Virus record (IMG/VR): IMGVR_UViG_3300020042_005969
Span: 1 to 30,909 of that record
Reading direction: 5' to 3' (one strand)
Source: a virus
Lineage: Duplodnaviria > Caudoviricetes
Length of the DNA stretch: 30,909 nt
Shown: positions 1-27,989 of the stretch, piece by piece
Layout of the letters: each line of letters starts with the position of its first letter
Numbering within the stretch: position 1 is the first letter of the stretch
The notes under the pieces: model-generated
The model's input: only the letters and a program-made list of their open reading frames with translations
The model's database searches: none
What the model was told of the DNA's origin: nothing
Translations under genes and position numbers: made by a program

Positions 1-1077
1 GTACCAGACGCCCCATGTGGTGCAGGCGCTGTAGTCGGATGTGTTCTTGGTCTCAAACGCCGTATCCCAGCTCTGGAGGATGTATTCGCACTTGGGCGGG
101 TCTTCGGGCAGCCAAATTCGCCAGCTTTTGCGGGAAATCAACGCCGAGTTGTCCAATGTTGGCTGTTGCATGTACTGGGCGTTCCAGTACCGGGGCTCAA
201 TGCTGGCTTTGGTGGTCTTCAGGGACTCCAGCGTCCACTGCTCGGGCCAGAGGGACTTCTCCTGCGGGGTATCTTCGTTCAGGATGGCCGGGAGTTCGAC
301 GATTTCCCACGGCAGGGAGTCAGGATTCTTGGTTTGGTACGTCAGCAAGCGCCCGGTCAGGTCGAGCAGCGACCAACGGGTCATCACAATGATGATTGCC
401 CCTCCGGGCATCAGCCGTTGCAGCGGCCCGGTCTGCATCCACGACCACGCAGTGTCAAATGCAAGGCGGCTGTTGGCTTTTACGTCTTGTTCTGAATGCG
501 GGTCATCAATAACGAATAGATCAGCGCCGCGCCCAGCAAGTGCACCGCCGACACCGGCGGCGTAGTACTGCCCACCGGCCCCGGTTGACCATTTACCGGC
601 TGCTTTTTGATCGTCTGCGACCCTTGTGTCAGGGAAAATCTCATGGTAGTCCTCGCTGTCCAACAAATTTCGCACCCGACGACCGTAATCCTCCGACAAA
701 CCCGCCGTGTGGGTCGCCATGATGATCTTTTTCTCGGGGTATTTGCCTAAAAAATAGGCAGGAAACAGGTATGAGCTGAATTCAGACTTGCCCATGCGGG
801 GTGCGATGTTGATGATGACGCGTTTTTTGCGCCCCTCAATCACATCCGTGAAGATTTTGGCCAGCTTGCGGTGGTGTGCGCCGATTTTGAAGCCCGGATA
901 GGTGGCTGTGGCAAAGCCCAGCATGTTATGTTGCGCCGCAGCAAGCGAAACACGCTTCTCCTGAACCTCCAAGTCGCTGAACAGCTCCATCTTTTCTTGG
1001 AGCGTCATGGTCGGCAGCGCCTTCATCAACGCTTCCAGCTCTTGTTTGTTAAGGGAGGTGAGGATGTCAGGGTTCAT
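1..1077 (-). CDS. terL: Terminase large subunit (3'-partial, continues beyond position 1)
   Basis: Hand translation from ATG at 1077: MNPDILTSLNKQELEALM...RVIINIAPRMGKSE (Walker A)...GRGADLFVIDDPHSE (Walker B)...IIVMTRW (motif III)...WNAQYMQQP...ILQSWDTAF...DYSACTTWGVWY (start of RNase H-like nuclease). No stop before window edge, hence absent from the ORF track. Confidence 0.96.
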   Translation of the reverse strand, partial: MNPDILTSLNKQELEALMKALPTMTLQEKMELFSDLEVQEKRVSLAAAQHNMLGFATATYPGFKIGAHHRKLAKIFTDVIEGRKKRVIINIAPRMGKSEFSSYLFPAYFLGKYPEKKIIMATHTAGLSEDYGRRVRNLLDSEDYHEIFPDTRVADDQKAAGKWSTGAGGQYYAAGVGGALAGRGADLFVIDDPHSEQDVKANSRLAFDTAWSWMQTGPLQRLMPGGAIIIVMTRWSLLDLTGRLLTYQTKNPDSLPWEIVELPAILNEDTPQEKSLWPEQWTLESLKTTKASIEPRYWNAQYMQQPTLDNSALISRKSWRIWLPEDPPKCEYILQSWDTAFETKNTSDYSACTTWGVWY

Positions 1078-1639
1078 CGGCAAGAACGGCTTCCTGTATA
1101 TCGACCACGCCCATGAACCGATTGAGTTTTTCCTTGATGCGCTGCTCCAACTCGGTGTCGGTGAGCGATTCCTTTTGGACTTCAATCTTGTCAGTGAACA
1201 GTCCCACCTCGGTCACCTTGCCAAGTAGGCCGAGCGCCTTGAGGCGGATGTTCGCGTTGGGGTTTTGGGTTTCTTCAACCAATTTGGCAACTGTGTAGCC
1301 GCGCAGCTCTTTGGCTTGGTTGACGAACTCCCAGTCGTATGCAGTCAGCATGCCCACTAAATGTTGCACCGCAGCAGGGGTCTTGACCTGTGCCAGCGCA
1401 GTGTGGGTAATTTCTTCCGGGGATGCAGAAACAAGATTTGCAAAAGTCTCTTGGGCGGCTTTGGTGTCAAGGGCGGTGGCCAGCGCTTTGCTGTCTACCG
1501 CACCCATCTTGGTGAGCCAGTTGGTGGTATTGATTTTGGCGTCGAGTAAAGACGCGGGGTCGGCGTTCTTTGCCGCTGCCACGGGGCGTGGGCGGTTATC
1601 AAAAATTTCCGGCTCAAAATCAATCAGGTGTTCAAACAT
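1067..1639 (-). CDS. terS: Probable terminase small subunit
   Basis: 190 aa helical protein directly upstream of and overlapping terL; RLKALGLLGK...VGLFTDKIEV segment typical of podophage TerS. Confidence 0.7.
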   Translation of the reverse strand: MFEHLIDFEPEIFDNRPRPVAAAKNADPASLLDAKINTTNWLTKMGAVDSKALATALDTKAAQETFANLVSASPEEITHTALAQVKTPAAVQHLVGMLTAYDWEFVNQAKELRGYTVAKLVEETQNPNANIRLKALGLLGKVTEVGLFTDKIEVQKESLTDTELEQRIKEKLNRFMGVVDIQEAVLADEP

Positions 1640-1648
1640 GCGTAGGTG

Positions 1649-1677
1649 TTGCGGCCTCGTTCGGCGCAGTGTATACT
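1649..1677 (+). promoter_or_regulatory. Sigma70-like promoter driving the small RNA
   Basis: TTGCGG (1649-1654), 17-nt spacer, TATACT (1672-1677). Confidence 0.6.
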
Positions 1678-1708
1678 AGATCGCGGTAGGTGTGCAACTC
1701 TTGTGCAT
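1676..1708 (-). CDS. Possible 10-aa leader ORF MHKSCTPTAI upstream of terS (alternative reading of the same DNA)
   Basis: Minus strand reads AAGGAGAAGCAA-ATG CAC AAG AGT TGC ACA CCT ACC GCG ATC TAG, with a strong SD. Confidence 0.3.
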   Translation of the reverse strand: MHKSCTPTAI

Positions 1709-1773
1709 TTGCTTCTCCTTGGTAGCTAACACTACTTTTAAATCCCCGGCCTTGAACACCGGGGATTTTTTTT
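1684..1773 (+). ncRNA. Putative ~90-nt small RNA with anti-SD/anti-start-codon seed
   Basis: Lies between a promoter and an intrinsic terminator, no recognisable plus-strand gene; contains GCATTTGCTTCTCCTTG (1705-1721). 5' end estimated from the -10 box. Confidence 0.5.
1740..1773 (+). terminator. Rho-independent terminator
   Basis: AAATCCCCGG-ccttgaaca-CCGGGGATTT, running into a T8 tract (1766-1773). Confidence 0.85.
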
Positions 1774-2017: not shown

Positions 2018-2036
2018 GTGTTGCACTGTGCAACAC
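2018..2036. repeat. Class A palindrome, copy 1
   Basis: GTGTTGCAC-T-GTGCAACAC, just upstream of SD GGAG of gene 2056. Confidence 0.9.
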
Positions 2037-3070: not shown

Positions 3071-3361
3071 TATCCGGTTTATCTATAGCGTGGACACACT
3101 TTCGGACACGCTAAGTCGTTGATTCATAACGAGTATCGGCGCAGTACTCCAGACTATATATATAAATATAATTATTAAGATAAGTAAGTATGTATCTCTC
3201 CATATACCCACAAGCTCCGGCTGCTTTGCTTGCCCTTCCTTCCTTTGGCGTATTAGTTCCTCCCAAAACAGGGACTTTCTGGAGTACTGCGGCGTTTACC
3301 CTTGCGAATCAAGGACTTAGCGTGTCCAGCACCACGACACGAGATATAGATAAACCGGATA
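3071..3361. repeat. Large imperfect inverted repeat with two IHF-consensus sites around an AT-rich core (origin-like element)
   Basis: Arms 3071-3153 and 3278-3361 share TATCCGGTTTATCTATA, GGACACGCTAAGTC(g/c)TTGATTC and CGCAGTACTCCAGA; WATCAANNNNTTR at 3112-3124 (-) and 3307-3319 (+); AT run 3155-3190. Confidence 0.85.
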
Positions 3362-3403: not shown

Positions 3404-3415
3404 AGCGTTGAAAGT

Positions 3416-3430
3416 GTTGCACTGTGCAAC
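3416..3430. repeat. Class A palindrome, copy 3
   Basis: GTTGCAC-T-GTGCAAC between TATAAT and the SD of gene 3448. Confidence 0.9.
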
Positions 3431-7727: not shown

Positions 7728-7745
7728 TTTTTAAGGAGAAAGTAA

Positions 7746-7955
7746 ATGACTGTGTTGACTGGTAATCAGATTGAGTTTGCGCGGCTGCTCACGCTACGCA
7801 AGATGTTGAAGCTGGAGATGTACGGCATGACGCGCAGGGGGCGCAGTGCGTACTCGATACTGAAGAAGGAGCTTGGGCTTACGGGCAACAAGCAGCGGGT
7901 CTATGACCAAGTGTGTGCCATGTGTGATTCCGTTTTACAAGGAGAGACAGCATGA
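7746..7955 (+). CDS. Hypothetical protein (69 aa)
   Basis: AAGGAG SD; LKLEMYGMTRRGRSAYSILKKELG. Confidence 0.82.
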   Translation: MTVLTGNQIEFARLLTLRKMLKLEMYGMTRRGRSAYSILKKELGLTGNKQRVYDQVCAMCDSVLQGETA

Positions 7956-8289: not shown

Positions 8290-8320
8290 TTAATCGTGTT
8301 AACTAAAACTGGAGAAGTAA

Positions 8321-8902
8321 ATGCCTGATATCAAAACAGCACTGGCCACCGCCCTAAAAGAGTGGGAGCCGCCCACAGAGGGAACGGTCATAGCGCCCGC
8401 AGCCCCTGCACCCACGCCCAAGCCCGCGCCTCGGCCCAACATGACCCGCGACACCTTCGCTATGGTTCGGGACAACCCCGGCATCACACGCGCAGACGCA
8501 ATGGCGCGGCTGGAGGCTATGGGCCACAAGCCCATCTCCACATCGACCACCCTGTATCAAATGGTCAGAGCCAAGATGATTGACGAGGTGGACGGGGCAC
8601 TCTCAACCAAGCGCAAGAACTACACATCGCTGACCCATGCGCTGGAGAAAGCACCCAAGGGCAAACGCAAGACTAGGGTGCAGAAGCCCAAGGTTATCGA
8701 AGCCGCGCCCAAACCGCAGGCTACCCACGCTTGGGTTGCACCCGAACCGCAGGCTGCACCAGTCAAAACCGCACGCACGCTGATGGAAGAAGACCGTCAA
8801 CGGGTGTCAGACGAGATTGACAATTGGCTCAACAGCGTGACCTTGCGTTACGCCAGCCTCGTGTACGAGCGCCTGCACTACATCTTTGGAGCACAACGAT
8901 GA
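8321..8902 (+). CDS. Putative winged-HTH DNA-binding protein (193 aa)
   Basis: TFAMVRDNPGITRADAMARL...STTLYQMVRAKMI pattern; GGAG SD. Confidence 0.7.
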   Translation: MPDIKTALATALKEWEPPTEGTVIAPAAPAPTPKPAPRPNMTRDTFAMVRDNPGITRADAMARLEAMGHKPISTSTTLYQMVRAKMIDEVDGALSTKRKNYTSLTHALEKAPKGKRKTRVQKPKVIEAAPKPQATHAWVAPEPQAAPVKTARTLMEEDRQRVSDEIDNWLNSVTLRYASLVYERLHYIFGAQR

Positions 8903-9096: not shown

Positions 9097-9217
9097 CTTC
9101 TTCGCACTGGTGGGGCTTGTCTCCACCATCATCGTGGTGGGGTTCTACATGGGCTACACCACCTATCAACCCGAGTGCAGCATGTGGGTCGCTGCGCTTA
9201 CTAAGGAGTGCAAATGA
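9080..9217 (+). CDS. Small membrane protein (45 aa, MRLLADFFALVGLVSTIIVVGFYMGY...), not in the ORF track
   Basis: AAGGAG SD; single hydrophobic helix; ATGA coupling to next gene. Confidence 0.72.
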   Translation: MRLLADFFALVGLVSTIIVVGFYMGYTTYQPECSMWVAALTKECK

Positions 9218-9582
9218 CAATGAGAGACCTTGACCCCGAATTTTACGAATTGGGGTTCACGATGCGTGTGCTCAACTGCTTTCGGGCTGAAGCAATTTTG
9301 TCCATCAGGCAACTGCTTACTTACTCAGAGCAAGAGCTGAACAAGATTCCAAACTTTGGGCGTAAGTCAGGGCGGGAAGTGGTTGAAGCGTTGGAGTCAC
9401 GGGGATTCAAGCTGCGCGACCACAACACACCGCCACCATTAAGACCGTTGGAGCAAGCCAAGCACCATCTTGATATGGCTGCGCTAGCGTTTGCCCGAGC
9501 AAATGAAGAGATGCACAAAGCATTTGGCGAGATTACCCGCGCTGAAAACGCATACTACAAACGGAGCAAGAATGAACATTGA
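9214..9582 (+). CDS. Stand-alone RNA polymerase alpha-subunit C-terminal domain homologue with helical tail
   Basis: ELGFTMRVLNCFRAEAILSIRQLLTYSEQELNKIPNFGRKSGREVVEALESRGFKL aligns with RpoA CTD (LELTVRSANCLKAEAI...[27 protein letters not shown]). Confidence 0.9.
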   Translation: MTMRDLDPEFYELGFTMRVLNCFRAEAILSIRQLLTYSEQELNKIPNFGRKSGREVVEALESRGFKLRDHNTPPPLRPLEQAKHHLDMAALAFARANEEMHKAFGEITRAENAYYKRSKNEH

Positions 9583-10202: not shown

Positions 10203-10435
10203 CTGAGCCCTACGGGTACTGCATGCAAGGGTGCAGGTTCATCTTTGGTGAAGGCAAGTTTGAACTTAGTTCCGCTAATGGTAAGTTGTTTGCAATTTAC
10301 CTTGAGCCAACGTATGAGGGGCAAGAGCCGTTTGCTTGTATTAGCCCAAGTTCAGGACTGTATCTGTTCTATTTAGATGACCTGACAAAACACAACTTAG
10401 CACTTGTATACAAGGAGAAAGCAAATGAAGACTGA
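10199..10435 (+). CDS. Hypothetical protein (78 aa)
   Basis: GGAGG SD before ATG 10199. Confidence 0.72.
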   Translation: MTEPYGYCMQGCRFIFGEGKFELSSANGKLFAIYLEPTYEGQEPFACISPSSGLYLFYLDDLTKHNLALVYKEKANED

Positions 10436-12605: not shown

Positions 12606-12682
12606 CCAAATGGGACAATTTTATAAATTGACACCATCAAGAAATGGGTGGTTCCTCACGGAGAATACACAGGAGAACGCAA

Positions 12683-12889
12683 ATGATTGATGACAAAGAG
12701 CAGATAGACAGGATGAAGGAAGCTTTAGCCAAGGCCATGAAGCGTGTTCCTGAGTCTGTGGCTAACGGTAGCTACCAACGGGCTGTTCAGTACAAGTCTG
12801 ACTACCTCAAGGCACAGAAGATTCTCAACAAGAAGACACCCAAAATCAACGAACTAGGAAGTGCTTTAAACACTATGAAACATGACTGA
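12683..12889 (+). CDS. Hypothetical protein (68 aa)
   Basis: AGGAG SD before ATG 12683. Confidence 0.75.
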   Translation: MIDDKEQIDRMKEALAKAMKRVPESVANGSYQRAVQYKSDYLKAQKILNKKTPKINELGSALNTMKHD

Positions 12890-14063: not shown

Positions 14064-14342
14064 ATGCATAGCAAAAACCTAACCAAACGGGACAGAGAGC
14101 ATTTATTGCAGGTGAAGTCTTTGTCTTGCGGGGTATGCGGTGCTAGTGCGCCAAGTGATGCACATCACATTGAACAAGGACTGCATTTCATATGCATACC
14201 GTTATGCAAGGACTGCCATCAGGGCTCACACAATGGAATACATGGACGCAGAGCAATGTGGAGTGTGCTAAAGAAGACGGAGCTTTCCGTCCTCAATGAC
14301 ACAATCAGTAGATTGCTTACGGTCGGGCCATCTTCTGCATAA
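14064..14342 (+). CDS. HNH-type / Ref-like zinc nuclease
   Basis: CGVCG...DAHHI...CIPLCKDCHQG..NGIH. Confidence 0.8.
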   Translation: MHSKNLTKRDREHLLQVKSLSCGVCGASAPSDAHHIEQGLHFICIPLCKDCHQGSHNGIHGRRAMWSVLKKTELSVLNDTISRLLTVGPSSA

Positions 14343-17300
14343 CCTGAATTTCACTGGTCAACGCATTTTGCGTCTTGTTAATTTCGTCTAGCATCATTCG
14401 CTTCTCCTCTGCGGGCATCGGGGTAGAACGAATCATTGCAGCCTGAGCACTGAGCTTCTGCATCTGCTTGTCCACTGAGGATACGTAGCCCCTCATCCCG
14501 TACATCGATATGTTCTTCTCAATGTACCCCTGAAGTTCAGGACTTCCCTGTTTTGAAAGCAGATTGACTGTACGTACAACTTGGTCAACCGAATTTTTTA
14601 GGTCGTAGAAATCACTTACCTGACCCCTTGCTTCAGGGTCAAGCAGAAATCGTCTTATCACAGCAGTCTGTTCAAAGCGTTGAGATGCCTTGGGGTTATC
14701 ACTACCTGCGCTAAATACAGAATCCATTACATTCGCTAGGTACATGCCCATTGTTCCCGTGTAGCCCTTGTACACATGGTCAATCATTATGGGAGACATG
14801 CCAGTCTGCTTACCAAGGAACTCTGCAATCTTCGTGGTCTTCTCGTTGATTTGAAACTCAGGGGCAATGTTTCCCATTGCTTCGCCCACAATGGGACGCT
14901 GTGTAAACACCGAGTAGTTGTACTGAGCTTCCAGAAGTGGAGCAATAGCTTGGGGCACAGGGTTAAACGCAAAGGTGGACAGCAGGGCTCTCTGCATGGA
15001 GTCGCCCAACTGTTTTGATGTGTCTGTTCCGTAGGAGTAACGGTAGATACGTTCTGGGATAGTTTTAAACAGAACCCCGACCTCAAACGGGATTGGCAGC
15101 TTGATGCCAAGACTTGGTATGAGCCAGTTGTTGTCCTTGGTCTCTTGTTCCTGTTTCTCGTAGTCAGGGTCTCCCATGATTGCTGCGGCGTACATAGTAC
15201 TCAGGGCCATCATAGTTGCCCCACGAATCAACATAGCCTTCTGAACCTGCTTCTCGTAGGCGGTCGAGTTCTTGTCATAGAAGGGTCGGATACCTGCACG
15301 GAAGAACACATCCAGACCTTGGACACGGGCGTTCAAGAACGGGATGGCAGCGGCTGCAATACGCACTATGGCAGAGCGTCCCTTGCGGTTGAAGTTCAGC
15401 ACCTCTACCGCCCGACGTATAGCCTCTGCCTCGTTGCCAGTTTCCTTCAGGGTGGCTTCGTAGACAGCCATACGCGTTGCAGCATCGGATGCCTCTGTTC
15501 CACGCTCAAGGAATCCCCAGACATTTGCAAATGGTTTAAACAGTTGCTCTGACTTGGTCTGAGTTCCGGTCTTTTTACGGAGGTCTGCGGCGAAAGCTTC
15601 TGCTCCGGCTTCCACGTTACGGGAGTATTCGTATCCACCGATTGCACCTGAATTTAGCAGTGCTTGATAGACCGGAGAGCGGTTCATGATTGCAGCGCCA
15701 AAGTTCTTGACGGTGGAGATGACGGGCTTGATGTTTGCACCGCTGGTGACGTAAGCGGACAAGGAGTCACGCATCATGTTGGCAAGCATGAAGCCGGGGT
15801 CTTTGGTGACCAAGCTTCGGAGCAAGTCTGCTGGCGCTGAAAGAATGCTGAGGAACGGCAACTCAGGCAGGTTTAAACTGCTGACAGCCTCAATGAAGAG
15901 TTTGTCTGCACATTGATAGGACACCTTCTTGCCATTCTCCAGAATGGTGATTGTGTCTGGCGCAGAGGCGACCGCAGGCAACTTCGTAACCATGCCCAGC
16001 ATCATTCCATTCTTCACAGCCTTCTGGGCTGCAAGATTCTTCATGCTGGATTGGATGGCAGCTTGAGTGTTGCGAACGATGGTCTCAAGGTAGTCCTCAA
16101 TAGGAGCATCGCCCTTGCCTTTTAGGGTCTTGGGAGGTTTGACACCGCTGATGCTTTGGTAGACGCTTGGGCCAAGCGTTGTGCGCCCATCCATCTGACG
16201 GTACAGGGGGATGTAGTCGGAGTACTTCATAAACTCAGCGCCTGCCGCTGGGGTAATCACACCAGCATCAACTTGCAACTTGACCAGCGCGTTGTTGTAC
16301 TTAATCCAGTCCTGCTGGACGGTAACAAACTCAGGGTACTTTTGGCTTAGGGTCAGGGCATCCTTGATTTCTGCGGGGGTCAGCAACTCAAAGCGACCCT
16401 CACGGTACAAACGGGTTCCCCGTTTAGCTGCACTCCAAATCTGGTACAGCCGGTAGATGTCAGGGTCACCGCGACTGGCTAAAGGAGAAAGGATTTCTAG
16501 AACGCCTTTGACTGTGCCGTTTAAATTGTCAACGGTGACATAGCCGTTCTTCAGTACTGGAGCACCACCCATGCGGTCGCCAACGCCCAATGCAGACGCT
16601 GTAACACCAGCAGCCATGTCAGAGTTTAAGGAGGCCCAGTGTGCGCTTTGGTCTGCAAGTAGGTCTATGCCACCCATCTGCTGGGCAACCATCTTGTCGT
16701 AATCGTTTAAACGGTTATAACGGTCAAAGAAATTTTGACGGAAATAGCTCCATGCCTCTGGTGCTAGAGCATTTATGACGCGCTCCGCAAAGCCTTTGGT
16801 CTCCCGTGGGGGAGTGACCCTGTTCATGGTCGCCAAGATGGCTGCACCATTGGGCATGTTGCTCAGGTCGTTCTTGACGTTAGTGCGTAGGCTCTTACGA
16901 ATATCAGGGTTGTTGATATCGTATGTACCTTCATTGCCGGTGGCAGACTTGAGTTGGTTAGAGTCATAGACTGCTAGGTTCTTCTCGTTGCCCTGCTTGA
17001 TGTAGAAGCTATCAAACCCAGCAGCGCGAATTGCATTCTGCACTCGGTCAGATTCCAGTCTAGCAACATTGTTAGCAAGGCTATCTGTGGTTACATCCTT
17101 CAGGCCAAGTTCTTTGATGTGGTCTTGATTCTCGTAATCAAAAGGCCGTTCAGCCCTCACAAACACCGGCATGATGTTTTTACCGGAAGCAGGGAATAGT
17201 TTGTCGGCTGCGGTCTTTAAAAAATCGGAAGCCTCTCCCGTTGGGTTAGACGATTTGATTTCTTTAATGAGACCGGAAGCTTCTTTGGAAAAGCCGTAGG

Positions 17301-20300
17301 AACTCTTAACGTCTGCAATAGCTTGAGCCCTAGACTTAGCCAGCTCCTGTGGGGAGTAGCTTGATAGCTGACGCTCAAATGCCTTGTACCCTGCCGCTGT
17401 TTCTGCATACTCATCTGCGAACTGAGGACTGTCCGTCAGGAAGATAGCCCCGGCTTGCTTAGGTTTAAACGTAGTAATGTCTTGGGCTGTCCCGTGGTAC
17501 ATGACCCTCGGGTTGCCGTCTGCATCAACTATCTTGCTGTCGCCAAAGAACCGTTTAAACTCAGGTGTATCTGGTGCTGTGCGAAGACTGGCTCTGGTAA
17601 CCGGTGCTTCTGGCAGGCTTGGAAGTTTGTTTACAAGCGGGCTCTTTTCTGAAAGGCTGCCCAGCTTCTGCTTGGCATTCAAGGTTCCGATGTACTGAAG
17701 CATGGGCGCATCAACCGCCTCATCGCCCGTCAATGTAAACGCTACAGGCGGCAAGGAGGCCTTCTGGTCAGCAAAGCCGCGTTCTTTCAGGGCGACATTC
17801 TTTACCTCGGGGCGGAAGTTCTGCCATGCATTCTGTGCCCGTGTCTCGTTAGTCAACGCCCAACGTGCCAATGGGTCAGTGGTGGTTGCCATGTGGTTCT
17901 TCCACGCAGCAAACTCACCCTTAGGGCCAAACTCTGTATCGCTCAGGTTGTGGGCAAAGTAATCGTGTACAGCCCGCAACAGGTCGTTGTACAACATTGT
18001 TTTACCGTTGATGTCCTTCATACCGGAATCACCAAGTAATGGGTGACCGGTGAAGTCCACACCCTCAGGCCCGAATGTGTTGGCATCCGTCTTGAGAACC
18101 TTGAAGGTGTTGTTTAGGCTGACATCCTTGCGCATCTCTGCGCTGTTCTTGTAGATGTCAATGTAATTCTTGTTCTCGTCAAATTTGGGGTCAGTCAACT
18201 CTACCTTGATTGGTAAAGCCTCGTACTGACGTTTGACTTCCTTCGCAAGAGCCTCGTATGCATTACGCACAATAGGCTTCTTGAGGTCGTTCTTGGGCAG
18301 GGCCTGAAACACATCCTTGAGGACGGTTTGCTCTTGTACCTGCGCTTTGGTTAAAGCTTTCTGCTCAAACGCCTTGATTGGATGGCGAGTGAGGTACTCC
18401 CCGATTATTCTCGGGGTTGCTTTGTCTGAGTCCTGCTTGGGACGAACGATGCCACTGATGTCAGCGTATCCGAGTCTTGCCCCATATCCTCGTCCGTAGA
18501 CTGCAAGACGTTGTGTTTGGAATTGAAGTCTGCCGTCATCTGCTCCATAGCTTTCATAAATTCCCTCGAGCTTGCTGAGGAATTCCTTGTATCCTGCTGT
18601 GTCATTCTCTTCTCCTTGTACGTGATATGCGGTTAGGTCTGTTGCTGAAACAGAGAAACCTTTAAGTCCTGCGTTGTTGACGATATCAACAATGTCCTGC
18701 TCCGTCAATTCTTTTTGAAGCTTGACCGTGTAGACAGGGGTTGCGTATGTTCCATCGCCAAAGTCGTGACCAACCTTGTATGCGGTCTTAGTCCTGACGT
18801 GGATTTGCTCTTGGTTGAAGTTGTCAGCAAACTTGGCAAGTGCGGCTAGGACAGCGGCATTGTCTGATTCCTTGAACCGTACTTGTGCCACGATGGCTGG
18901 CTCACGGTCAGACTCGTACACACCCTTCACACCACTGACAGTAACTCTAGCGTTTGTCCCGCTCAGAAGGTGCTTCAGTGTGCTGGCTGCAACATTCTGC
19001 AACACAGCATAAGCCTCTGCATCACCGTTTAAAGCACGAGTGTGCAATAGGTCAAGGCCCGGAATGCTCTTTGTCACAGCAGACAGGTTGACGATTGCCT
19101 TATCGACTAGCTCTTTTCCTTTACGCAGTCGGACTCCACCTTCTGGTGTAAACGACATGTCAAAGCTACCGCCACCGTCTTCTACGAACTCACCCTCACC
19201 GGAGCTAAACCAGTCTGGGCGGTCTGCTCTCTCACCAAGAGCTTCAATGTTTCTGCGTGTCTCATCAAAGGATTGCTCACCTGTGCGGAACTTAGTCCAC
19301 TCGGCACGGATGGGCTTCTTAATTTGATTCTTGATGTTCTCGGGGAACATGCCACGGACAGCTTCCCATGTGATGGATTGCATCTCACGGGGTTTCAGTC
19401 CTACCTGTCTAGCAGCTTCACGGTACGCATCTGCAATCAAGCCGTAGGTTCCGCCAACACCAATCTTGGTGTTCTTGCCAATGCCACCAAAGTTATCCAG
19501 CACCTCGGGGTCTGAGCCAGCCAATGCTTCATACAGGCCAGCAGCCACTGCATGGGTGTCAATGGTGACATGACCTATCGGGCTGTTTGGTGAAACGATG
19601 TTGTTGTAGAAGGAACGAATCTTGTGCTCTTCTCCAAGCTGTTGGCTGATGTTTTCACGGCTTGGGTCGCGGAAGATGCTGACGGTCTTCTCAATCGGGC
19701 TGTAAGTTGACCACATCATGGTGGCTGTCTTGGCTGCACCGGTTTCTTTGTCAACGTTCTTGTTCATCACAAAGCCACCGAACCCACCCTCAGGAGTAAC
19801 GATACGGTACTTGCGGTCATGGAACGCTTCGTCGTAAGCGCGTACAAACGCAGCAGCGTCCTTGACGCTCATGTCTTTGAGCTTGACTTGCCTACGGCTC
19901 ATTTCTGAGATTCGTTTGTCAAAGAAAATCTGCCGCTTCTCACGGTCTTTCCTGTCCTCTGCCTCGTTGATGTAGCTACGTGCGTAGTCCATCATCTGAG
20001 GAGTCCAAGTGGCATCACCGTTGTTGGTCAAGATTTCAATCGCCCGTTCAGCCATTGAGACGTTCTGGAACCAATCTTTCTGCGGAGACATGGCAGCCAA
20101 GATGCCTGAGACCTGTTCCTTGCTCATGTCATACCGAGCGCCCAACTCAATGGCTATGCGGTTTGCCCCGTCATACCAAAGCTTGCTGCGCTGACGCACA
20201 TCCTCAGGCACACGGTTGTACAAGTGCAGGAGGTTGTTGACAATGTTGTCTTTGAACACCTTGATGACATCTTCATCCTTGGTGTTCGCTGGGATAAAAC

Positions 20301-23300
20301 CATACGACTTGATGGTCTCAATCATGTTCTTCTCTAGCTCAGGGTTCTGAGCCATCGATTCACGTACTGCCGCCTCATCGATAGACAGCATGTCTGTCAG
20401 CGGGTCATACAGGCGGTTCTTAGCCTGAGGGTTCTGTGTGGAGATTTCAGACTCATCCTTGACCGCCTTGCGGACTAGGCTCTTCTTAGTCTCTTCAGTT
20501 TTCTCAGCAGCCTTGGTAGCCTTCAACTCACCACGCTCCACCTTACCGAACACGTCGTCGGCTGTCTCGTAGCCTGCACCTGTAAACGCAGAGCGCAGAT
20601 TGCGGAAGAACTTACGCATGGCATTTAGAAGCTGTGCAAACAATCCCTTGGGAGCACCGTTTACATCAAAGTCTGCAAACGCGTCAGCAATAGCTTCCTC
20701 ACGTACAGCGGCGCTGTCGTTGGCGTACAGGTTCTGGTACGCATCAAAGCGAGACTGCTGCCCCTTCTGAAGAGGCTGTCCGTCGATGTTGCGCTGCTTC
20801 AGGTACTTGTTAATCCATACTTTGTCCGCTTGGTTCTCCAGAACCTTCCACTGACCGGGCGTGAAGAAACCCAAGTCCTTGAGGCCGTGGATGGACTCAT
20901 GGCGCAGGACACGAACGGGGTTGTTTGCATCTAAAGCAATCTTGATGGTGCTGGCTACGTAGGAGCCCTCGTCCTTCATGCCCTCTTCAATCTTGAGAGC
21001 AACATCCCCAAGACCAAACTTACGCAGCATGGGCAGAAGCTGACCCTGTAGCTCTTCCGCTTTGGGGTTTACTTTGGGCTCTTCCTTTACCTCTGGCTCT
21101 TTCTTTACCTCTGGCTTTTCCGCCAAGAAAGGCTTAGGAGGATTCTTCCGGCGCTCCTGCTCCTTCTTTAAACGATTGGCAAAGCCCGGTGCTTTTGTCT
21201 GGCCTGCAAGTTCATTTAAACGTTTAGCAGGCAGGTTCTCAAGGGCATGCCTTTCAGCTTCCTCTCGTGTGTCAAACGACTTCTGACTTACTCCCGGTTC
21301 TTTGACAGTGAAGACCTTCTTGTTACCAACTCTGCCGGTGGGGTTGACCACAACAGACTGCTGGAGCATGTCTCTTTGTTCGTTTAAACGTTTAATGTTT
21401 TGGGCTGCGTTAGCAACTACCGAGTCTTGACGGGCGGATGCTTGTTGGTACTGCGGTGTGTTAAACAGGCCGTTAGACTCCATTGTGCTCAAGGCGCGCT
21501 GTCCTGCCGCAATGCTGGAGTTCTCTTTGGCGATAGCCTTCTCAATCTGGGCAACTGCTGGGGTAGCAGACTTGCCTAGGCTTGCTGCCTTTGCAGCAGC
21601 GTCTTCCTCGTTCTCTGTGAAGTACAGACGCTTGTCACCACGCATGACGTTGAACCCAGTCTTCTCAGCGGGCGCAGCGCCTTCCTCAATGTTGAACTCT
21701 GCCTGTGGGCCCTTGGCTTGCAGGGTTACATTACCATCGCTTGTAAGGTCAATGTCACCCTTGCGATTGGCATCTTGAAAAAGAATCTTGATGTCATCGT
21801 CGCTTTTAAGCTTGGCGGTCTTCTTAATAAGGCTCTGTGCCTCATCAACAGAGACAGGCTTTAGCTTTGGCTGTTGACCTTCTTTGAGATTTGCCTGCTC
21901 TTGGGCAATGGCCTCATTACGCTTGGTTACCAAGCCCTGTAGGGCGCTCACAGCAGATGTGTACTGCTCAGGGTTGTAGATGGTAGCGTTGGTCATCTCC
22001 GGGAGAATCTGCACCTCTTCAAACCTTGGCAGTTCTGCCAATGCTTTAAATGCAGAATGGAGTTGAGGCTGCGACATGCTCGCAATCTCGTTCTCGCCGG
22101 TAGCTCGTTGAAGGAAGTATTTAAACCCTGTTGTGGTGGTGTCAATGTTCTTCTGCTTGGCAACCTTGATAACATCCTCAGGGACATACTTCATCCCACC
22201 GACGTAGCCGGTCTTTGCTGCAATAAGACTGTTTAAATCAGCTTTCTCTGCGTCAGGAAGCTGGTTAGGCATTGCATTGCGGATGTCTTCAATGGAGTAG
22301 CTGTCAATCTCAGGCTTGCCCTGTTTCTTGCGGACAGAGTCCACATACTGGGCAATCTTGGGAGAGCGGCTTATTAGTTCATCCTTAGAGAATCTGCCGA
22401 CGGGGTCGTCCAAAGCATCACCAACCGTCATGGTTGGCTTCTTAGCCTGCTCTACTGCAACACCTTCTATATCAGCACCTTCCACCACCGCAGGCTCTAC
22501 CTTTGCAGGCTCTGGAAGGTTGGGTAAAACTTTGTTGTACTCGGTAGCCAACTGCTCCAACTCTGGAGTCATGGCCTTCACTTGCTCTTCAATCTGAGCA
22601 TTGTGTAAACGGTCTGCCGTCTCTGTTGCAGAGTTCTTCTGGATGTCGCGCAACTGAGCAAGTAGCTCGTTCTTACGTCCTTCTGCCGCTTGGTACTGGG
22701 TAGCTATGTTCTTTGCGTAATCAGGAGAAGATGTGTCAGGAGGTGGCGGCTGCTCCGCCTGACGGGCAACAGCTTCAGCTTGCTCCTTCTGAGCAACCGC
22801 AGCCTTGGCTCCGCTCTTATCGCCCATGCGTCCCACAATACCCAACGGGCCAAGCAAAGCCACTTGATATGCTGTTTCGCCATATTCCTTCATAGCCTCT
22901 GGGCCGGTCAAAGGAAGACCCGCCTGATACCGCTCAAGAACTTGCTGGGGAATCTCTGTGGGTATTTCACCAGCAATACCGGTCAGTGTGCCCTTGGCAA
23001 TTGTTGCAGAAATACGTTCTTTGGCAAGCCTTTCAATGGCTTCAGAACTACCTTTAGCCAAAACTTCCTCAGGTATTCCTATCAGCTTGCCAAAAATCTT
23101 ACTACCCAGCAGGATGCGGTTTGATACCACATCAAACGCACCTTGAGGGATTGCGGTTGTAGCGGCAGATTTGGTATTGATGTCAATAGGCTTACCAGCA
23201 GCTACTTGCTCTTGAGCTTGGCGCTCAACGTTACCGCCTAGTGATTGGACATAAGATGGCGCAAAAATACCAGCAATACCCCCTGCAATCCCTCCCGCTA

Positions 23301-23778
23301 TCCTGCCACGACCACCGGCAACGGAACCTAATTTTTGACCAGTTTTAGACCCCGCCAATGCACTTGCATACGAAGCGGCAAGATTAGGGGACTGCTCTGC
23401 AATAGCCAAGGGAATTTGCTTGACTGTCTCGCCAGCAGCAGACAAGAGACCATCTTTTTTGTACGTATCAAGAACTTTTTGTAAGCCAACTTGTTCGGCG
23501 TACTTCTTGTTTATTTCTTTACTCCGCTCCAATGCAGCTTTTGCCGCCTCATCGGCATCTCCAGTTGCAACTCCATAAACTGTCTTTGCAGCAGAGCCAA
23601 CTTGTGCGGTTCCTTTTTTGAGGGCCGCAAGGATTCCCTCCTTAGGAGGAGGTGGAGGATTTGCTGCTTCTGGCCTTAAAGAATATAGAGTGGCAGATAG
23701 CTGACTCTCAGAAGCACCTTCAGGAGCCTCTAAGTCGTAAATATTCCCATCAGGCGCTTGCAGTGAGTAGATAGGCAT
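14317..23778 (-). CDS. Giant polyvalent internal virion/ejection protein (3153 aa)
   Basis: Last gene of the virion module. HESIH...EEAIADAF zincin (~20520-21050); WY/SPQ/KIRSFYNN/TIDTH/QSITW domain (~19340-20230); NLSA/GVY..E/NQE domain (~18700-19100); RAVHDYFAH domain (~17750-18330); ART-like YHGT/IFLTDS/AVY (~16890-17580); LPD38-like PFLNARVQG/LPIPFEVG/PLLE C-terminus. Confidence 0.92.
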   Translation of the reverse strand: MPIYSLQAPDGNIYDLEAPEGASESQLSATLYSLRPEAANPPPPPKEGILAALKKGTAQVGSAAKTVYGVATGDADEAAKAALERSKEINKKYAEQVGLQKVLDTYKKDGLLSAAGETVKQIPLAIAEQSPNLAASYASALAGSKTGQKLGSVAGGRGRIAGGIAGGIAGIFAPSYVQSLGGNVERQAQEQVAAGKPIDINTKSAATTAIPQGAFDVVSNRILLGSKIFGKLIGIPEEVLAKGSSEAIERLAKERISATIAKGTLTGIAGEIPTEIPQQVLERYQAGLPLTGPEAMKEYGETAYQVALLGPLGIVGRMGDKSGAKAAVAQKEQAEAVARQAEQPPPPDTSSPDYAKNIATQYQAAEGRKNELLAQLRDIQKNSATETADRLHNAQIEEQVKAMTPELEQLATEYNKVLPNLPEPAKVEPAVVEGADIEGVAVEQAKKPTMTVGDALDDPVGRFSKDELISRSPKIAQYVDSVRKKQGKPEIDSYSIEDIRNAMPNQLPDAEKADLNSLIAAKTGYVGGMKYVPEDVIKVAKQKNIDTTTTGFKYFLQRATGENEIASMSQPQLHSAFKALAELPRFEEVQILPEMTNATIYNPEQYTSAVSALQGLVTKRNEAIAQEQANLKEGQQPKLKPVSVDEAQSLIKKTAKLKSDDDIKILFQDANRKGDIDLTSDGNVTLQAKGPQAEFNIEEGAAPAEKTGFNVMRGDKRLYFTENEEDAAAKAASLGKSATPAVAQIEKAIAKENSSIAAGQRALSTMESNGLFNTPQYQQASARQDSVVANAAQNIKRLNEQRDMLQQSVVVNPTGRVGNKKVFTVKEPGVSQKSFDTREEAERHALENLPAKRLNELAGQTKAPGFANRLKKEQERRKNPPKPFLAEKPEVKKEPEVKEEPKVNPKAEELQGQLLPMLRKFGLGDVALKIEEGMKDEGSYVASTIKIALDANNPVRVLRHESIHGLKDLGFFTPGQWKVLENQADKVWINKYLKQRNIDGQPLQKGQQSRFDAYQNLYANDSAAVREEAIADAFADFDVNGAPKGLFAQLLNAMRKFFRNLRSAFTGAGYETADDVFGKVERGELKATKAAEKTEETKKSLVRKAVKDESEISTQNPQAKNRLYDPLTDMLSIDEAAVRESMAQNPELEKNMIETIKSYGFIPANTKDEDVIKVFKDNIVNNLLHLYNRVPEDVRQRSKLWYDGANRIAIELGARYDMSKEQVSGILAAMSPQKDWFQNVSMAERAIEILTNNGDATWTPQMMDYARSYINEAEDRKDREKRQIFFDKRISEMSRRQVKLKDMSVKDAAAFVRAYDEAFHDRKYRIVTPEGGFGGFVMNKNVDKETGAAKTATMMWSTYSPIEKTVSIFRDPSRENISQQLGEEHKIRSFYNNIVSPNSPIGHVTIDTHAVAAGLYEALAGSDPEVLDNFGGIGKNTKIGVGGTYGLIADAYREAARQVGLKPREMQSITWEAVRGMFPENIKNQIKKPIRAEWTKFRTGEQSFDETRRNIEALGERADRPDWFSSGEGEFVEDGGGSFDMSFTPEGGVRLRKGKELVDKAIVNLSAVTKSIPGLDLLHTRALNGDAEAYAVLQNVAASTLKHLLSGTNARVTVSGVKGVYESDREPAIVAQVRFKESDNAAVLAALAKFADNFNQEQIHVRTKTAYKVGHDFGDGTYATPVYTVKLQKELTEQDIVDIVNNAGLKGFSVSATDLTAYHVQGEENDTAGYKEFLSKLEGIYESYGADDGRLQFQTQRLAVYGRGYGARLGYADISGIVRPKQDSDKATPRIIGEYLTRHPIKAFEQKALTKAQVQEQTVLKDVFQALPKNDLKKPIVRNAYEALAKEVKRQYEALPIKVELTDPKFDENKNYIDIYKNSAEMRKDVSLNNTFKVLKTDANTFGPEGVDFTGHPLLGDSGMKDINGKTMLYNDLLRAVHDYFAHNLSDTEFGPKGEFAAWKNHMATTTDPLARWALTNETRAQNAWQNFRPEVKNVALKERGFADQKASLPPVAFTLTGDEAVDAPMLQYIGTLNAKQKLGSLSEKSPLVNKLPSLPEAPVTRASLRTAPDTPEFKRFFGDSKIVDADGNPRVMYHGTAQDITTFKPKQAGAIFLTDSPQFADEYAETAAGYKAFERQLSSYSPQELAKSRAQAIADVKSSYGFSKEASGLIKEIKSSNPTGEASDFLKTAADKLFPASGKNIMPVFVRAERPFDYENQDHIKELGLKDVTTDSLANNVARLESDRVQNAIRAAGFDSFYIKQGNEKNLAVYDSNQLKSATGNEGTYDINNPDIRKSLRTNVKNDLSNMPNGAAILATMNRVTPPRETKGFAERVINALAPEAWSYFRQNFFDRYNRLNDYDKMVAQQMGGIDLLADQSAHWASLNSDMAAGVTASALGVGDRMGGAPVLKNGYVTVDNLNGTVKGVLEILSPLASRGDPDIYRLYQIWSAAKRGTRLYREGRFELLTPAEIKDALTLSQKYPEFVTVQQDWIKYNNALVKLQVDAGVITPAAGAEFMKYSDYIPLYRQMDGRTTLGPSVYQSISGVKPPKTLKGKGDAPIEDYLETIVRNTQAAIQSSMKNLAAQKAVKNGMMLGMVTKLPAVASAPDTITILENGKKVSYQCADKLFIEAVSSLNLPELPFLSILSAPADLLRSLVTKDPGFMLANMMRDSLSAYVTSGANIKPVISTVKNFGAAIMNRSPVYQALLNSGAIGGYEYSRNVEAGAEAFAADLRKKTGTQTKSEQLFKPFANVWGFLERGTEASDAATRMAVYEATLKETGNEAEAIRRAVEVLNFNRKGRSAIVRIAAAAIPFLNARVQGLDVFFRAGIRPFYDKNSTAYEKQVQKAMLIRGATMMALSTMYAAAIMGDPDYEKQEQETKDNNWLIPSLGIKLPIPFEVGVLFKTIPERIYRYSYGTDTSKQLGDSMQRALLSTFAFNPVPQAIAPLLEAQYNYSVFTQRPIVGEAMGNIAPEFQINEKTTKIAEFLGKQTGMSPIMIDHVYKGYTGTMGMYLANVMDSVFSAGSDNPKASQRFEQTAVIRRFLLDPEARGQVSDFYDLKNSVDQVVRTVNLLSKQGSPELQGYIEKNISMYGMRGYVSSVDKQMQKLSAQAAMIRSTPMPAEEKRMMLDEINKTQNALTSEIQVMQKMARP

Positions 23779-26444: not shown

Positions 26445-27980
26445 TTACATTTTACTTAGAGCCAACTCAACCAATCCACCGGTTTTTTTGGTTGTAGTGG
26501 TTCCGCCAAACAGACCCTGAGACAGGGCCCCAAGTCCAGCAACTTGACTCAATGTAGAAGGGGGAGCCTGATAAACAGACGTTCCTAAATTGGAAGTTGG
26601 AGTCCCACGGATGATGTCCGACATGAAATTAAGCTGCTTGTACGGATTGTTCTGTTGGTTCAAGAAATCTTGATACTGCTGGCTCAGAACGTTTTGGGTT
26701 TGCTGTTGTTGCTGACCACCAAATGCATTCTGAATGCCCAAGGCATTGGCCTGTTGCCCGTAGATGTTCTGTCCCACAGCGCCAAGGTTGCTCATACCCT
26801 GCATACCGGCTTGAAGGCCCTGTAGACCAAGACCCGCACCATACTGGCGCGACTGCTCGTTAAGCTGGTTGGCTGACTGCCCGTACTGAGCGCCTAAGCT
26901 TGCCGCTTGTAGGTTCTGGCCTGCGTTGAACTGCCCCGCTTGGTTCTGAGCGGCTTGATTAGCCAGCGCGGTCTGCTGATTTAGCTGGCCTTGTTGCAGC
27001 CCAAACTGGCTCTGCGTCTGCTGGTTAGCCAGAGCAGCTTGTAAAGCCTGTTGTGCGTTTAAACCTTGCGTTTGTAGTTGTGCAGCTTGATTCTGCACAT
27101 TGGCCTGCTGTTCCGCAGACAAGTTAGCCAGCGAGGTTTGTAGCCCTGTCTGTGCGCCAAGCTGCTGAACACCAAGTGCTGCGCTTAGGTTTTGTCCGCC
27201 CGTGGTGAGCCCTGCCTGCTGGTTTGCCTGTTGTGCTGCCAAGCGGGCCTGCTGTTCTGCGTTGAACTGCTGCTGCGCTTGCTGGTACGCAGCTTGGGAG
27301 CCCTGCGCTTGGATGTCGCCCATCTGCTGACTTAGATTGCGCTCACGTTCCGCCCGCATGATGGCATCACGACCCCCGCCAAAAGCTCCGGCTTGCGCCG
27401 CCTGTGCCTGCTGTTGCGTACCTTGAATACCCGACTGGCGTTGTGCTTCGCGCTTTTGGATGTCCACCACGCTCTGCATGTACGGAGACATGTAAGCATC
27501 TGCTGCACCGGGCTGGGCAAAGCTTTGTGTGTTTACACGTTCAGCAGGCCCCATCTGAAAGTTTTGCAGACCGGGGTTGTACCCAGTTTGCGCCGTGTTC
27601 ATCATTGGCGCGTTGTATTGCCCTGCACTAACCATCGGGGCGCTGTTTAAATTTGTATTTTGCGCAGTCTGTGCGCCGTAACCAATCCCCTGTGGGTTAA
27701 ATTGATTGCCGTAGTTGCTTGGGTTGTATCCGGTGTTGGCAGCCCTGTTTGAATAGTCAAGCAGTCCTGATGCCGCATCAAGGGATGCCCCGGACGGGCC
27801 CAACTGTCCAGCGCCAATAAACGACTGTTGCTGTAATGGATTGAACTGAGCAATCCGTTCTTGACCGTATGTTTGATACGGAGAACTGGTGAGTGCTTCA
27901 GCTTTACCTAAAAGGGTCTGAGCATAGGGAGCTACTTCAGGTGCAAAACCTACCGAGTTGATGTATGTTGCGTCTGCCAT
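26445..27980 (-). CDS. Gln/Ala/Gly-rich DNA ejection (pilot-like) protein (511 aa)
   Basis: YMSPYMQSVVD, AGAFGGGR, repeated ANQ motifs; position among ejection genes. Confidence 0.8.
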   Translation of the reverse strand: MADATYINSVGFAPEVAPYAQTLLGKAEALTSSPYQTYGQERIAQFNPLQQQSFIGAGQLGPSGASLDAASGLLDYSNRAANTGYNPSNYGNQFNPQGIGYGAQTAQNTNLNSAPMVSAGQYNAPMMNTAQTGYNPGLQNFQMGPAERVNTQSFAQPGAADAYMSPYMQSVVDIQKREAQRQSGIQGTQQQAQAAQAGAFGGGRDAIMRAERERNLSQQMGDIQAQGSQAAYQQAQQQFNAEQQARLAAQQANQQAGLTTGGQNLSAALGVQQLGAQTGLQTSLANLSAEQQANVQNQAAQLQTQGLNAQQALQAALANQQTQSQFGLQQGQLNQQTALANQAAQNQAGQFNAGQNLQAASLGAQYGQSANQLNEQSRQYGAGLGLQGLQAGMQGMSNLGAVGQNIYGQQANALGIQNAFGGQQQQQTQNVLSQQYQDFLNQQNNPYKQLNFMSDIIRGTPTSNLGTSVYQAPPSTLSQVAGLGALSQGLFGGTTTTKKTGGLVELALSKM

Positions 27981-27989
27981 TTCAATTCC

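Follow-up and report, generated by a model that had tools for sequence, protein, structure and literature searches.

The DNA analyzed here is a 30,909-nt stretch from an IMG/VR virus record (IMGVR_UViG_3300020042_005969; Duplodnaviria, Caudoviricetes), referred to below as the window. It is a phage fragment, ~50% complete, with terL at its left end (gene 1-1077, identified by a family match) and an arm of small plus-strand genes that diverges from it. A predicted small-RNA gene lies back to back with the gene for a 190-aa protein upstream of terL, and the features of this locus are as follows.

1067..1639, minus strand: gene for the 190-aa protein, which overlaps terL and lies directly upstream of it; putative terS, from position alone
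1649..1677, plus strand: predicted promoter of the RNA, with -35 element TTGCGG (1649-1654), 17-bp spacer and -10 element TATACT (1672-1677)
1668..1697, minus strand: predicted leftward promoter, with -35 element TTGCAC (1697-1692), 18-bp spacer and -10 element TACACT (1673-1668); start near 1661
1684..1773, plus strand: small non-coding RNA gene, ~88-90 nt, ends predicted from the promoter and terminator
1685..1713, plus strand: hairpin P1, whose 3' arm CAUUUGCU is the part of the seed that pairs with the spacer and start codon
1714..1720, plus strand: single-stranded linker UCUCCUU, the complement of a GGAGA-type ribosome-binding site; predicted toehold
1721..1736, plus strand: hairpin P2, variable in sequence, with its pairing kept
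1740..1773, plus strand: intrinsic terminator, hairpin P3 and U run, from sequence and fold

A preliminary description of this DNA had proposed a promoter (TTGCGG-17-TATACT), a 17-mer seed and a strong terminator, and we found all three, at 1649-1677, 1705-1721 and 1740-1773 (hairpin and U run), respectively. Folding of the window RNA gave the three hairpins with a free energy of -31.1 kcal/mol (z = -3.7), and 0/200 shuffled sequences were equally stable. In the predicted fold, the seed segment 1705-1713 is buried in P1 and only UCUCCUU (1714-1720) is unpaired; two thirds of the originally proposed seed are therefore hidden because they lie inside P1. Judged by sequence features alone, the RNA matches the general kind of Hfq-dependent trans-acting sRNA in having its own promoter, a U-tailed intrinsic terminator and an exposed seed. 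Sequencing data in the form of contigs (seven runs filed as metatranscriptomic and one unlabelled run) included pieces that map to gene 2056 and to the 190-aa gene. Two contigs run through the promoter into the RNA gene: X8 (depth 64; 1544-1727), which comes from a relative, and X1 (1514-1763), from a run that is probably DNA. No contig was confined to the RNA, and contigs give neither strand nor ends, so these data are neutral on transcription.

To follow the locus across relatives, as the preliminary description had suggested for the region upstream of the putative terS, we gathered loci via the 190-aa protein of the window and that of a relative at 53% identity. The -10 box, the seed and the U run were present in 153/153 of these loci with enough upstream DNA (six further loci were too short upstream and are outside this count). 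A DNA pattern scan that ignored the protein returned 119 loci, 113 of which adjoin a 190-aa-type gene in the same arrangement. We estimate that ~430 stored IMG/VR stretches match a narrow pattern, and 3498 proteins are related to the neighboring 190-aa protein. After exclusion of three chance pattern matches (L139, L152, L220), 143 distinct RNAs of 60-128 nt (median 89) were analyzed. Three helices are predicted in 140/143 variants, UCUCC is unpaired in 137/143 (mean unpaired probability 0.98 in 54 variants), the plus strand is more stable than the minus strand in 142/143, and the seed core is identical in 104/143. The covariance model matches once per phage record. Among 21 records selected by their helicase, 16 had no model match, all of them <80% complete, and the near-complete ones were 3/3 positive. 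A short variant of ~60-70 nt occurs in three loci (L207, L236, L239), where P2 is missing and the seed UUGCUAUCUCC is followed by a second UUGCUUC.

The pairing was examined in two alignments. In a MAFFT alignment, which was not fitted to the structure, pairing cells made up 82%, compared with 75% when shuffled and 40-55% when slid. RNAalifold reported no structure on the MAFFT alignment because the stems are out of register there, and in its place base pairs were counted for one named structure. In a model-fitted alignment of 77 distinct rows, which leans towards the structure, 15/23 pairs vary on both sides, including 5/5 pairs of P2. The 3' UUGCU of P1 is nearly fixed and its 5' partners alternate between A and G or U and C; such a fixed strand with switching partners is a sign of additional pairing with something else. 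Judging from these comparisons of sequence, the RNA gene is real and widespread in a large family of uncultured phages.

The promoter region is conserved on both strands. The plus-strand promoter was not listed by a consensus scanner, and its -35 element has 3/6 consensus bases. A plus-strand TTG stands 17 or 18 bp from the -10 box in 102/105 distinct protein-selected relatives (the -35 of L026 reads TAG). On the minus strand, the key bases of the -10 box are kept in 103/105 distinct relatives and the -35 TTG 18 bp away in 91/105, and these -35 bases are conserved although they are paired in some RNAs and part of a tetraloop in others. From this we infer one symmetric bidirectional promoter that would drive the RNA rightward and the terminase operon leftward from ~1661. 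Within the spacer (1655-1661), C, C, G and T at -17, -14, -13 and -11 from the -10 box are conserved at 97-98%, which exceeds the needs of sigma-70 and makes a binding site for a late activator or a part of the terS leader possible.

The label terS given earlier to the 190-aa gene fits its position upstream of terL, with no family or usable fold behind it: the protein belongs to no family and matched nothing in annotated phages, and its AlphaFold model (pLDDT 50) was unusable. The further proposal that the RNA is antisense to the terS leader is unsupported, because the conserved leftward promoter would start transcription near 1661 and the two transcripts would not overlap; the predicted interaction is also weak (-3.5 kcal/mol). 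An operator-like palindrome, GTTGCAC-N-GTGCAAC, stands three times before early genes of the window (2018-2036, 2464-2480, 3414-3430), and a half-site overlaps the leftward -35 element. A similar palindrome lies within 4 kb of the RNA in 18/21 records, mostly in 2-6 copies, with lineage-specific arms (GTGACAC, GGGTCAC, GGGTCAG), which suggests a putative co-evolving repressor or activator. Separately, a gene-free stretch at 3071-3361 holds nested long inverted repeats (50-nt and 17-nt arms, AT-rich core), a candidate replication origin or genome-end signal.

All nine plus-strand initiation regions that had been listed as complementary to the RNA were located where the preliminary description placed them. 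The main predicted targets in the window are the following.

8311..8324, plus strand: best predicted window target, with 14 contiguous pairs at the translation start region of gene 8321 (193 aa)
10411..10427, plus strand: predicted target at the start region of gene 10425; seed duplex -23.8
9203..9216, plus strand: predicted target at the start region of gene 9214, which encodes an RNA polymerase alpha-CTD-like protein
7733..7748, plus strand: predicted target at the start region of gene 7746; from duplex and whole-RNA prediction
12671..12685, plus strand: predicted target at the start region of gene 12683; from duplex and whole-RNA prediction

When the 34 called genes of the window were ranked by seed duplex, the top eight initiation regions were all in the plus-strand early arm, seven of them from the original list. 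A minus-strand site at ~14410, in frame inside a gene for a 3153-aa protein, scores level with the best targets; this gene (14317-23778, minus strand) encodes a polyvalent protein with LPD38, DUF7178 and ART-PolyVal domains. With the whole RNA folded, 8321 is clearly the best target (-16.2 kcal/mol net, predicted), and it is the single window site with a long unbroken match. Two relatives with the same seed (G003, G017) keep GGAGAAG(C/T)AA ATG at the equivalent gene. Under the same prediction 10425 is bound through the linker only (-9.7 kcal/mol). Opening of P1 is predicted for the sites at 9214, 7746 and 12683 as well, and most other window targets would use the 7-nt linker only. The product of 8321 had been called a wHTH regulator; Pfam, PHROG and PDB gave no match, and the Atlas gave a weak lead to TrmB (score 0.83; the family is on 33% of members). 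The gene at 9214-9582 encodes a stand-alone phage alpha-CTD-like protein (PF03118, E 8.6e-16; nine relatives found), possibly a transcription decoy.

The strongest target evidence comes from an SNF2 helicase (PF00176), whose gene is outside the window fragment. The helicase site forms 10-16 contiguous pairs with the seed of its own genome in 21/28 genomes (G060, at 22 bits, was left out of this count as doubtful and resembles a reversed ribosome site). The mean run is 10.7 compared with 8.3 for permuted partners (0/20000 permutations), and with one genome per seed class (13 classes) it is 10.2 compared with 7.8 (0/20000 permutations); the genomes are related, so these and all other co-variation p-values overstate independence. 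Single changes can be followed on both sides. The sister genomes G005 and G007 are distinguished by a single base that is inserted in G007, in the seed as well as in the helicase site. The seed of G056 has CUGCU in place of UUGCU, and GGAGAAGCAG stands before two of its genes and in 0/36 other records; in G046, UUGCU is replaced by AUGCU in the seed and the site reads GGAGAAGCAU. Matched changes of seed and site are spread over several lineages of the helicase tree. Several of the co-varying helicase sites lack a full GGAG, and the match is therefore no by-product of the Shine-Dalgarno (SD) sequence.

The fit is incomplete. Seven of the 28 helicase sites are mismatched (G023, G024, G026, G028, G029, G031, G038); four of these genomes (G023, G026, G028, G029) have other sites with 13-17 pairs, and the remaining three (G024, G031, G038) have no site with 11 or more. 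In seven of 37 records, some of them fragments, no early site reaches 11 contiguous pairs, and G007 carries six GGAGAAAG(C/T)A sites that mismatch its own seed at one place. Beyond the helicase, the three best sites of a genome fit its own seed better than other seeds (10.26 vs 9.39, p = 0.004, 14 seed classes), and AGCA follows GGAGA as the spacer at 24/242 sites, where two kinds of shuffle gave 3.3 (maximum 10) and 10.0 (maximum 22). Typically, two to nine genes per genome match at the spacer and start codon. The co-variation in several lineages, with 21/28 helicase sites matched, bears out the original proposal of a plus-strand sRNA complementary to the initiation regions of the phage's own early genes, and as comparative support for a set of targets it is unusually direct.

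A broader bias concerns GGAGA, the complement of the linker UCUCC. With gene starts taken from a simple in-house caller, GGAGA stands at normal spacing before 298/590 early-arm genes (on the RNA strand) and 32/404 late-arm genes in 21 records; the counts are 239/499 and 30/357 for distinct sites, and 108/203 and 12/110 by protein family. GGAG sites continue with A in 71% of early and 32% of late cases. Sixteen further records, counted on the RNA strand, have GGAGA at 276/581 genes. In a complete genome, the first arm encodes DNA polymerase, exonuclease, helicase and primase, and the second arm terminase, portal, capsid and tail. As controls, two phages of Comamonadaceae hosts that are unrelated to this family had little GGAGA and no clear bias (3/20 vs 3/22 and 3/27 vs 0/19). 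The distantly related phage DSL-LC04 has the same bias (17/42 vs 3/42) with no match to the covariance model of the RNA and only a weak look-alike, implying that the GGAGA bias may predate the RNA or be independent of it. The early arm also has the stronger SD sites overall, with a median of -8.0 compared with -6.1 in the late arm. The bias is compatible with our model but is no proof of it.

From the sequence evidence we consider it likely, at a probability of about 0.72, that this conserved three-hairpin sRNA acts in trans on early and replication genes of the phage itself, pairing with their ribosome-binding sites and blocking translation. The RNA might instead mainly silence host mRNAs with GGAGA-type sites, as a host shut-off factor with the phage targets secondary. 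No other part of the RNA is as exposed or varies as little as UCUCC, late genes avoid GGAGA, the Betaproteobacteria toxic sRNA family RF02278 begins with UGUCUCC and aligns weakly (21 bits), and one such RNA, ncS27, slows growth when over-expressed, according to the accessible part of PMC5688073. Host targeting does not predict the observed changes of the seed in step with the helicase site and other early sites of the phage itself, and we regard this explanation as unlikely. As to the host itself, a genome scan returned one 4.9-kb MAG contig, probably a binned piece of phage, and one weak match, and a search for relatives of the alpha-CTD-like protein indicated no host.

Slightly less probable still is a role in superinfection exclusion or in a dormant carrier state, with the seed variants acting as immunity groups in the manner of c4 of P1 and P7. 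Seed and target do vary together between lineages, the promoter looks constitutive, and P1 and P7 are set apart by 4 nt that differ in c4 and in the c4 targets (PMC5320573). However, a search of 13 near-complete genomes for integrases of the tyrosine type, the one type covered, found none; the RNA is tied to the terminase promoter; and most seeds are common to distant lineages (the same core in 104/143), a poor fit to immunity groups. The lysis-lysogeny decision suggested at first is less likely for the same reason, as 0/13 near-complete relatives have a tyrosine integrase. We largely reject the caveat of the preliminary description, that this is simply a minus-strand RBS. A wider form of that reading, in which the stretch controls terS through such a site and a short ORF or leader, or is a DNA element of the promoter, with an incidental likeness to other sites, we consider very improbable: AAGGAGAAGCAA ATG does open an ORF of 10 codons that is in frame with the 190-aa gene and CAT is kept in 99/143 variants, but the ATG is absent in 22/54 variants and any start codon in 12, ORF lengths vary between 1 and 230 codons, the plus strand is favored by folding, by G-U pairs and by the U run, the predicted leftward start is downstream of this site, and the co-variation with a gene 14-17 kb away is left unexplained.

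A full-text literature search found no description of this RNA. Rfam at the gathering cut-off reported nothing in the window or in three control phages, and the C4 antisense RNA model (presumably accession RF01695) gave no match at gathering and none among the matches to E 5. The nearest parallel in action is the c4 RNA of P1 and P7, which the accessible parts of PMC12197685 and PMC5320573 describe as phage-encoded, 77 nt long and made of three stem-loops. Our RNA resembles it in its three stem-loops (~89 nt), in trans pairing at the ribosome-binding site of the phage's own mRNA (predicted here) and in the co-variation of RNA and target between related phages. As far as those excerpts go, c4 pairs via two loops, a' and b', whereas here the loops are variable and the linker and the P1 3' arm are conserved; c4 is cut from a precursor by RNase P, whereas this RNA has its own predicted promoter; and c4 targets an antirepressor operon in temperate phages, whereas this RNA matches many early and replication genes in phages without a tyrosine integrase (13/13 near-complete genomes). 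No antirepressor was found among 60 scanned proteins of one relative (G004).

The second parallel is RF02278, double-hairpin RNAs such as ncS27 with many predicted targets at start regions (PMC5688073, in the portion accessible). According to that portion they likewise carry UCUCC in unpaired form, as a complement of ribosome-binding sites, ahead of a hairpin and a U-run terminator. The RF02278 covariance model scores 21 bits here, below its cut-off of 50, and similarly weak matches occur in 13/14 control genomes. Unlike RF02278, this RNA has an extra 5' hairpin that hides the complement of the spacer and AUG, and it is a single-copy phage RNA that co-varies with phage genes; RF02278 has three to five homologues in Burkholderia chromosomes, compared with one model match per phage record searched here. 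VpdS of VP882, sar of P22, OOP and aQ of lambda, and PAK_P4as15 are likewise phage RNAs that regulate phage genes post-transcriptionally, but each is either a cis-antisense RNA of a single gene or an Hfq sRNA of a temperate phage, and the accessible text of PMC12197685 describes none of them as reading an arm-wide ribosome-site motif. In the IMG/VR catalogue of structured RNAs (PMC10690425), the seed string is absent from the tables searched, and an unannotated listing elsewhere in the catalogue is possible. In its predicted action, the RNA works like c4 and the Burkholderia toxic sRNAs, and it is a member of neither family. Intergenic UGUCUCC followed by a terminator was also seen in DSL-LC04 (L123, ~27974-28060, minus strand; 25 bits to RF02278) and in P26218 (L328, 1-80, plus strand). 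Both look-alikes resemble the host toxic sRNAs, and anti-GGAGA RNAs may be more common in such phages.

Pairing over the SD sequence and AUG blocks translation initiation. In the mechanism that we propose for the phage RNA, the UCUCC linker would dock on GGAGA-type sites, which stand before about half of the early-arm genes and fewer than one in ten late-arm genes. The linker would serve as a toehold, and strand displacement into P1 would separate strong targets from weak ones: where the spacer and start codon also match, pairing would enter P1 and produce a 10-17 bp duplex over the site and AUG. Such full-duplex targets would be the SNF2 helicase most consistently and, in the window, the gene at 8321. 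Because the symmetric promoter is common to the RNA and the terminase operon, the RNA would be made together with the packaging genes, its level rising with genome copy number. It could then act as an early-to-late brake that damps the replication genes as packaging begins and lets the virion-building genes escape. The late timing is something we infer, since the promoter resembles an ordinary sigma-70 promoter.

More tentatively, and with a probability that we would put well below even, the system may amount to a ribosome-site code in which GGAGA marks early genes and many host genes and is purged from late genes, so that a terminase-linked RNA shifts the translation of the cell away from early and host mRNAs to late ones, and a toehold-gated tier shuts off the replication helicase, passing the DNA on from replication to packaging. 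Early-to-late switching in lytic phages is usually attributed to transcription, through sigma factors, anti-terminators and phage polymerases. If our reading is true, these phages would have a translational version of the early/late switch that reads a motif common to one genome arm. The natural compensatory pairs of seed and target make the idea testable by simple reporters, with phage culture unnecessary, and the stem-gated design would be a natural model for tunable multi-target riboregulators.
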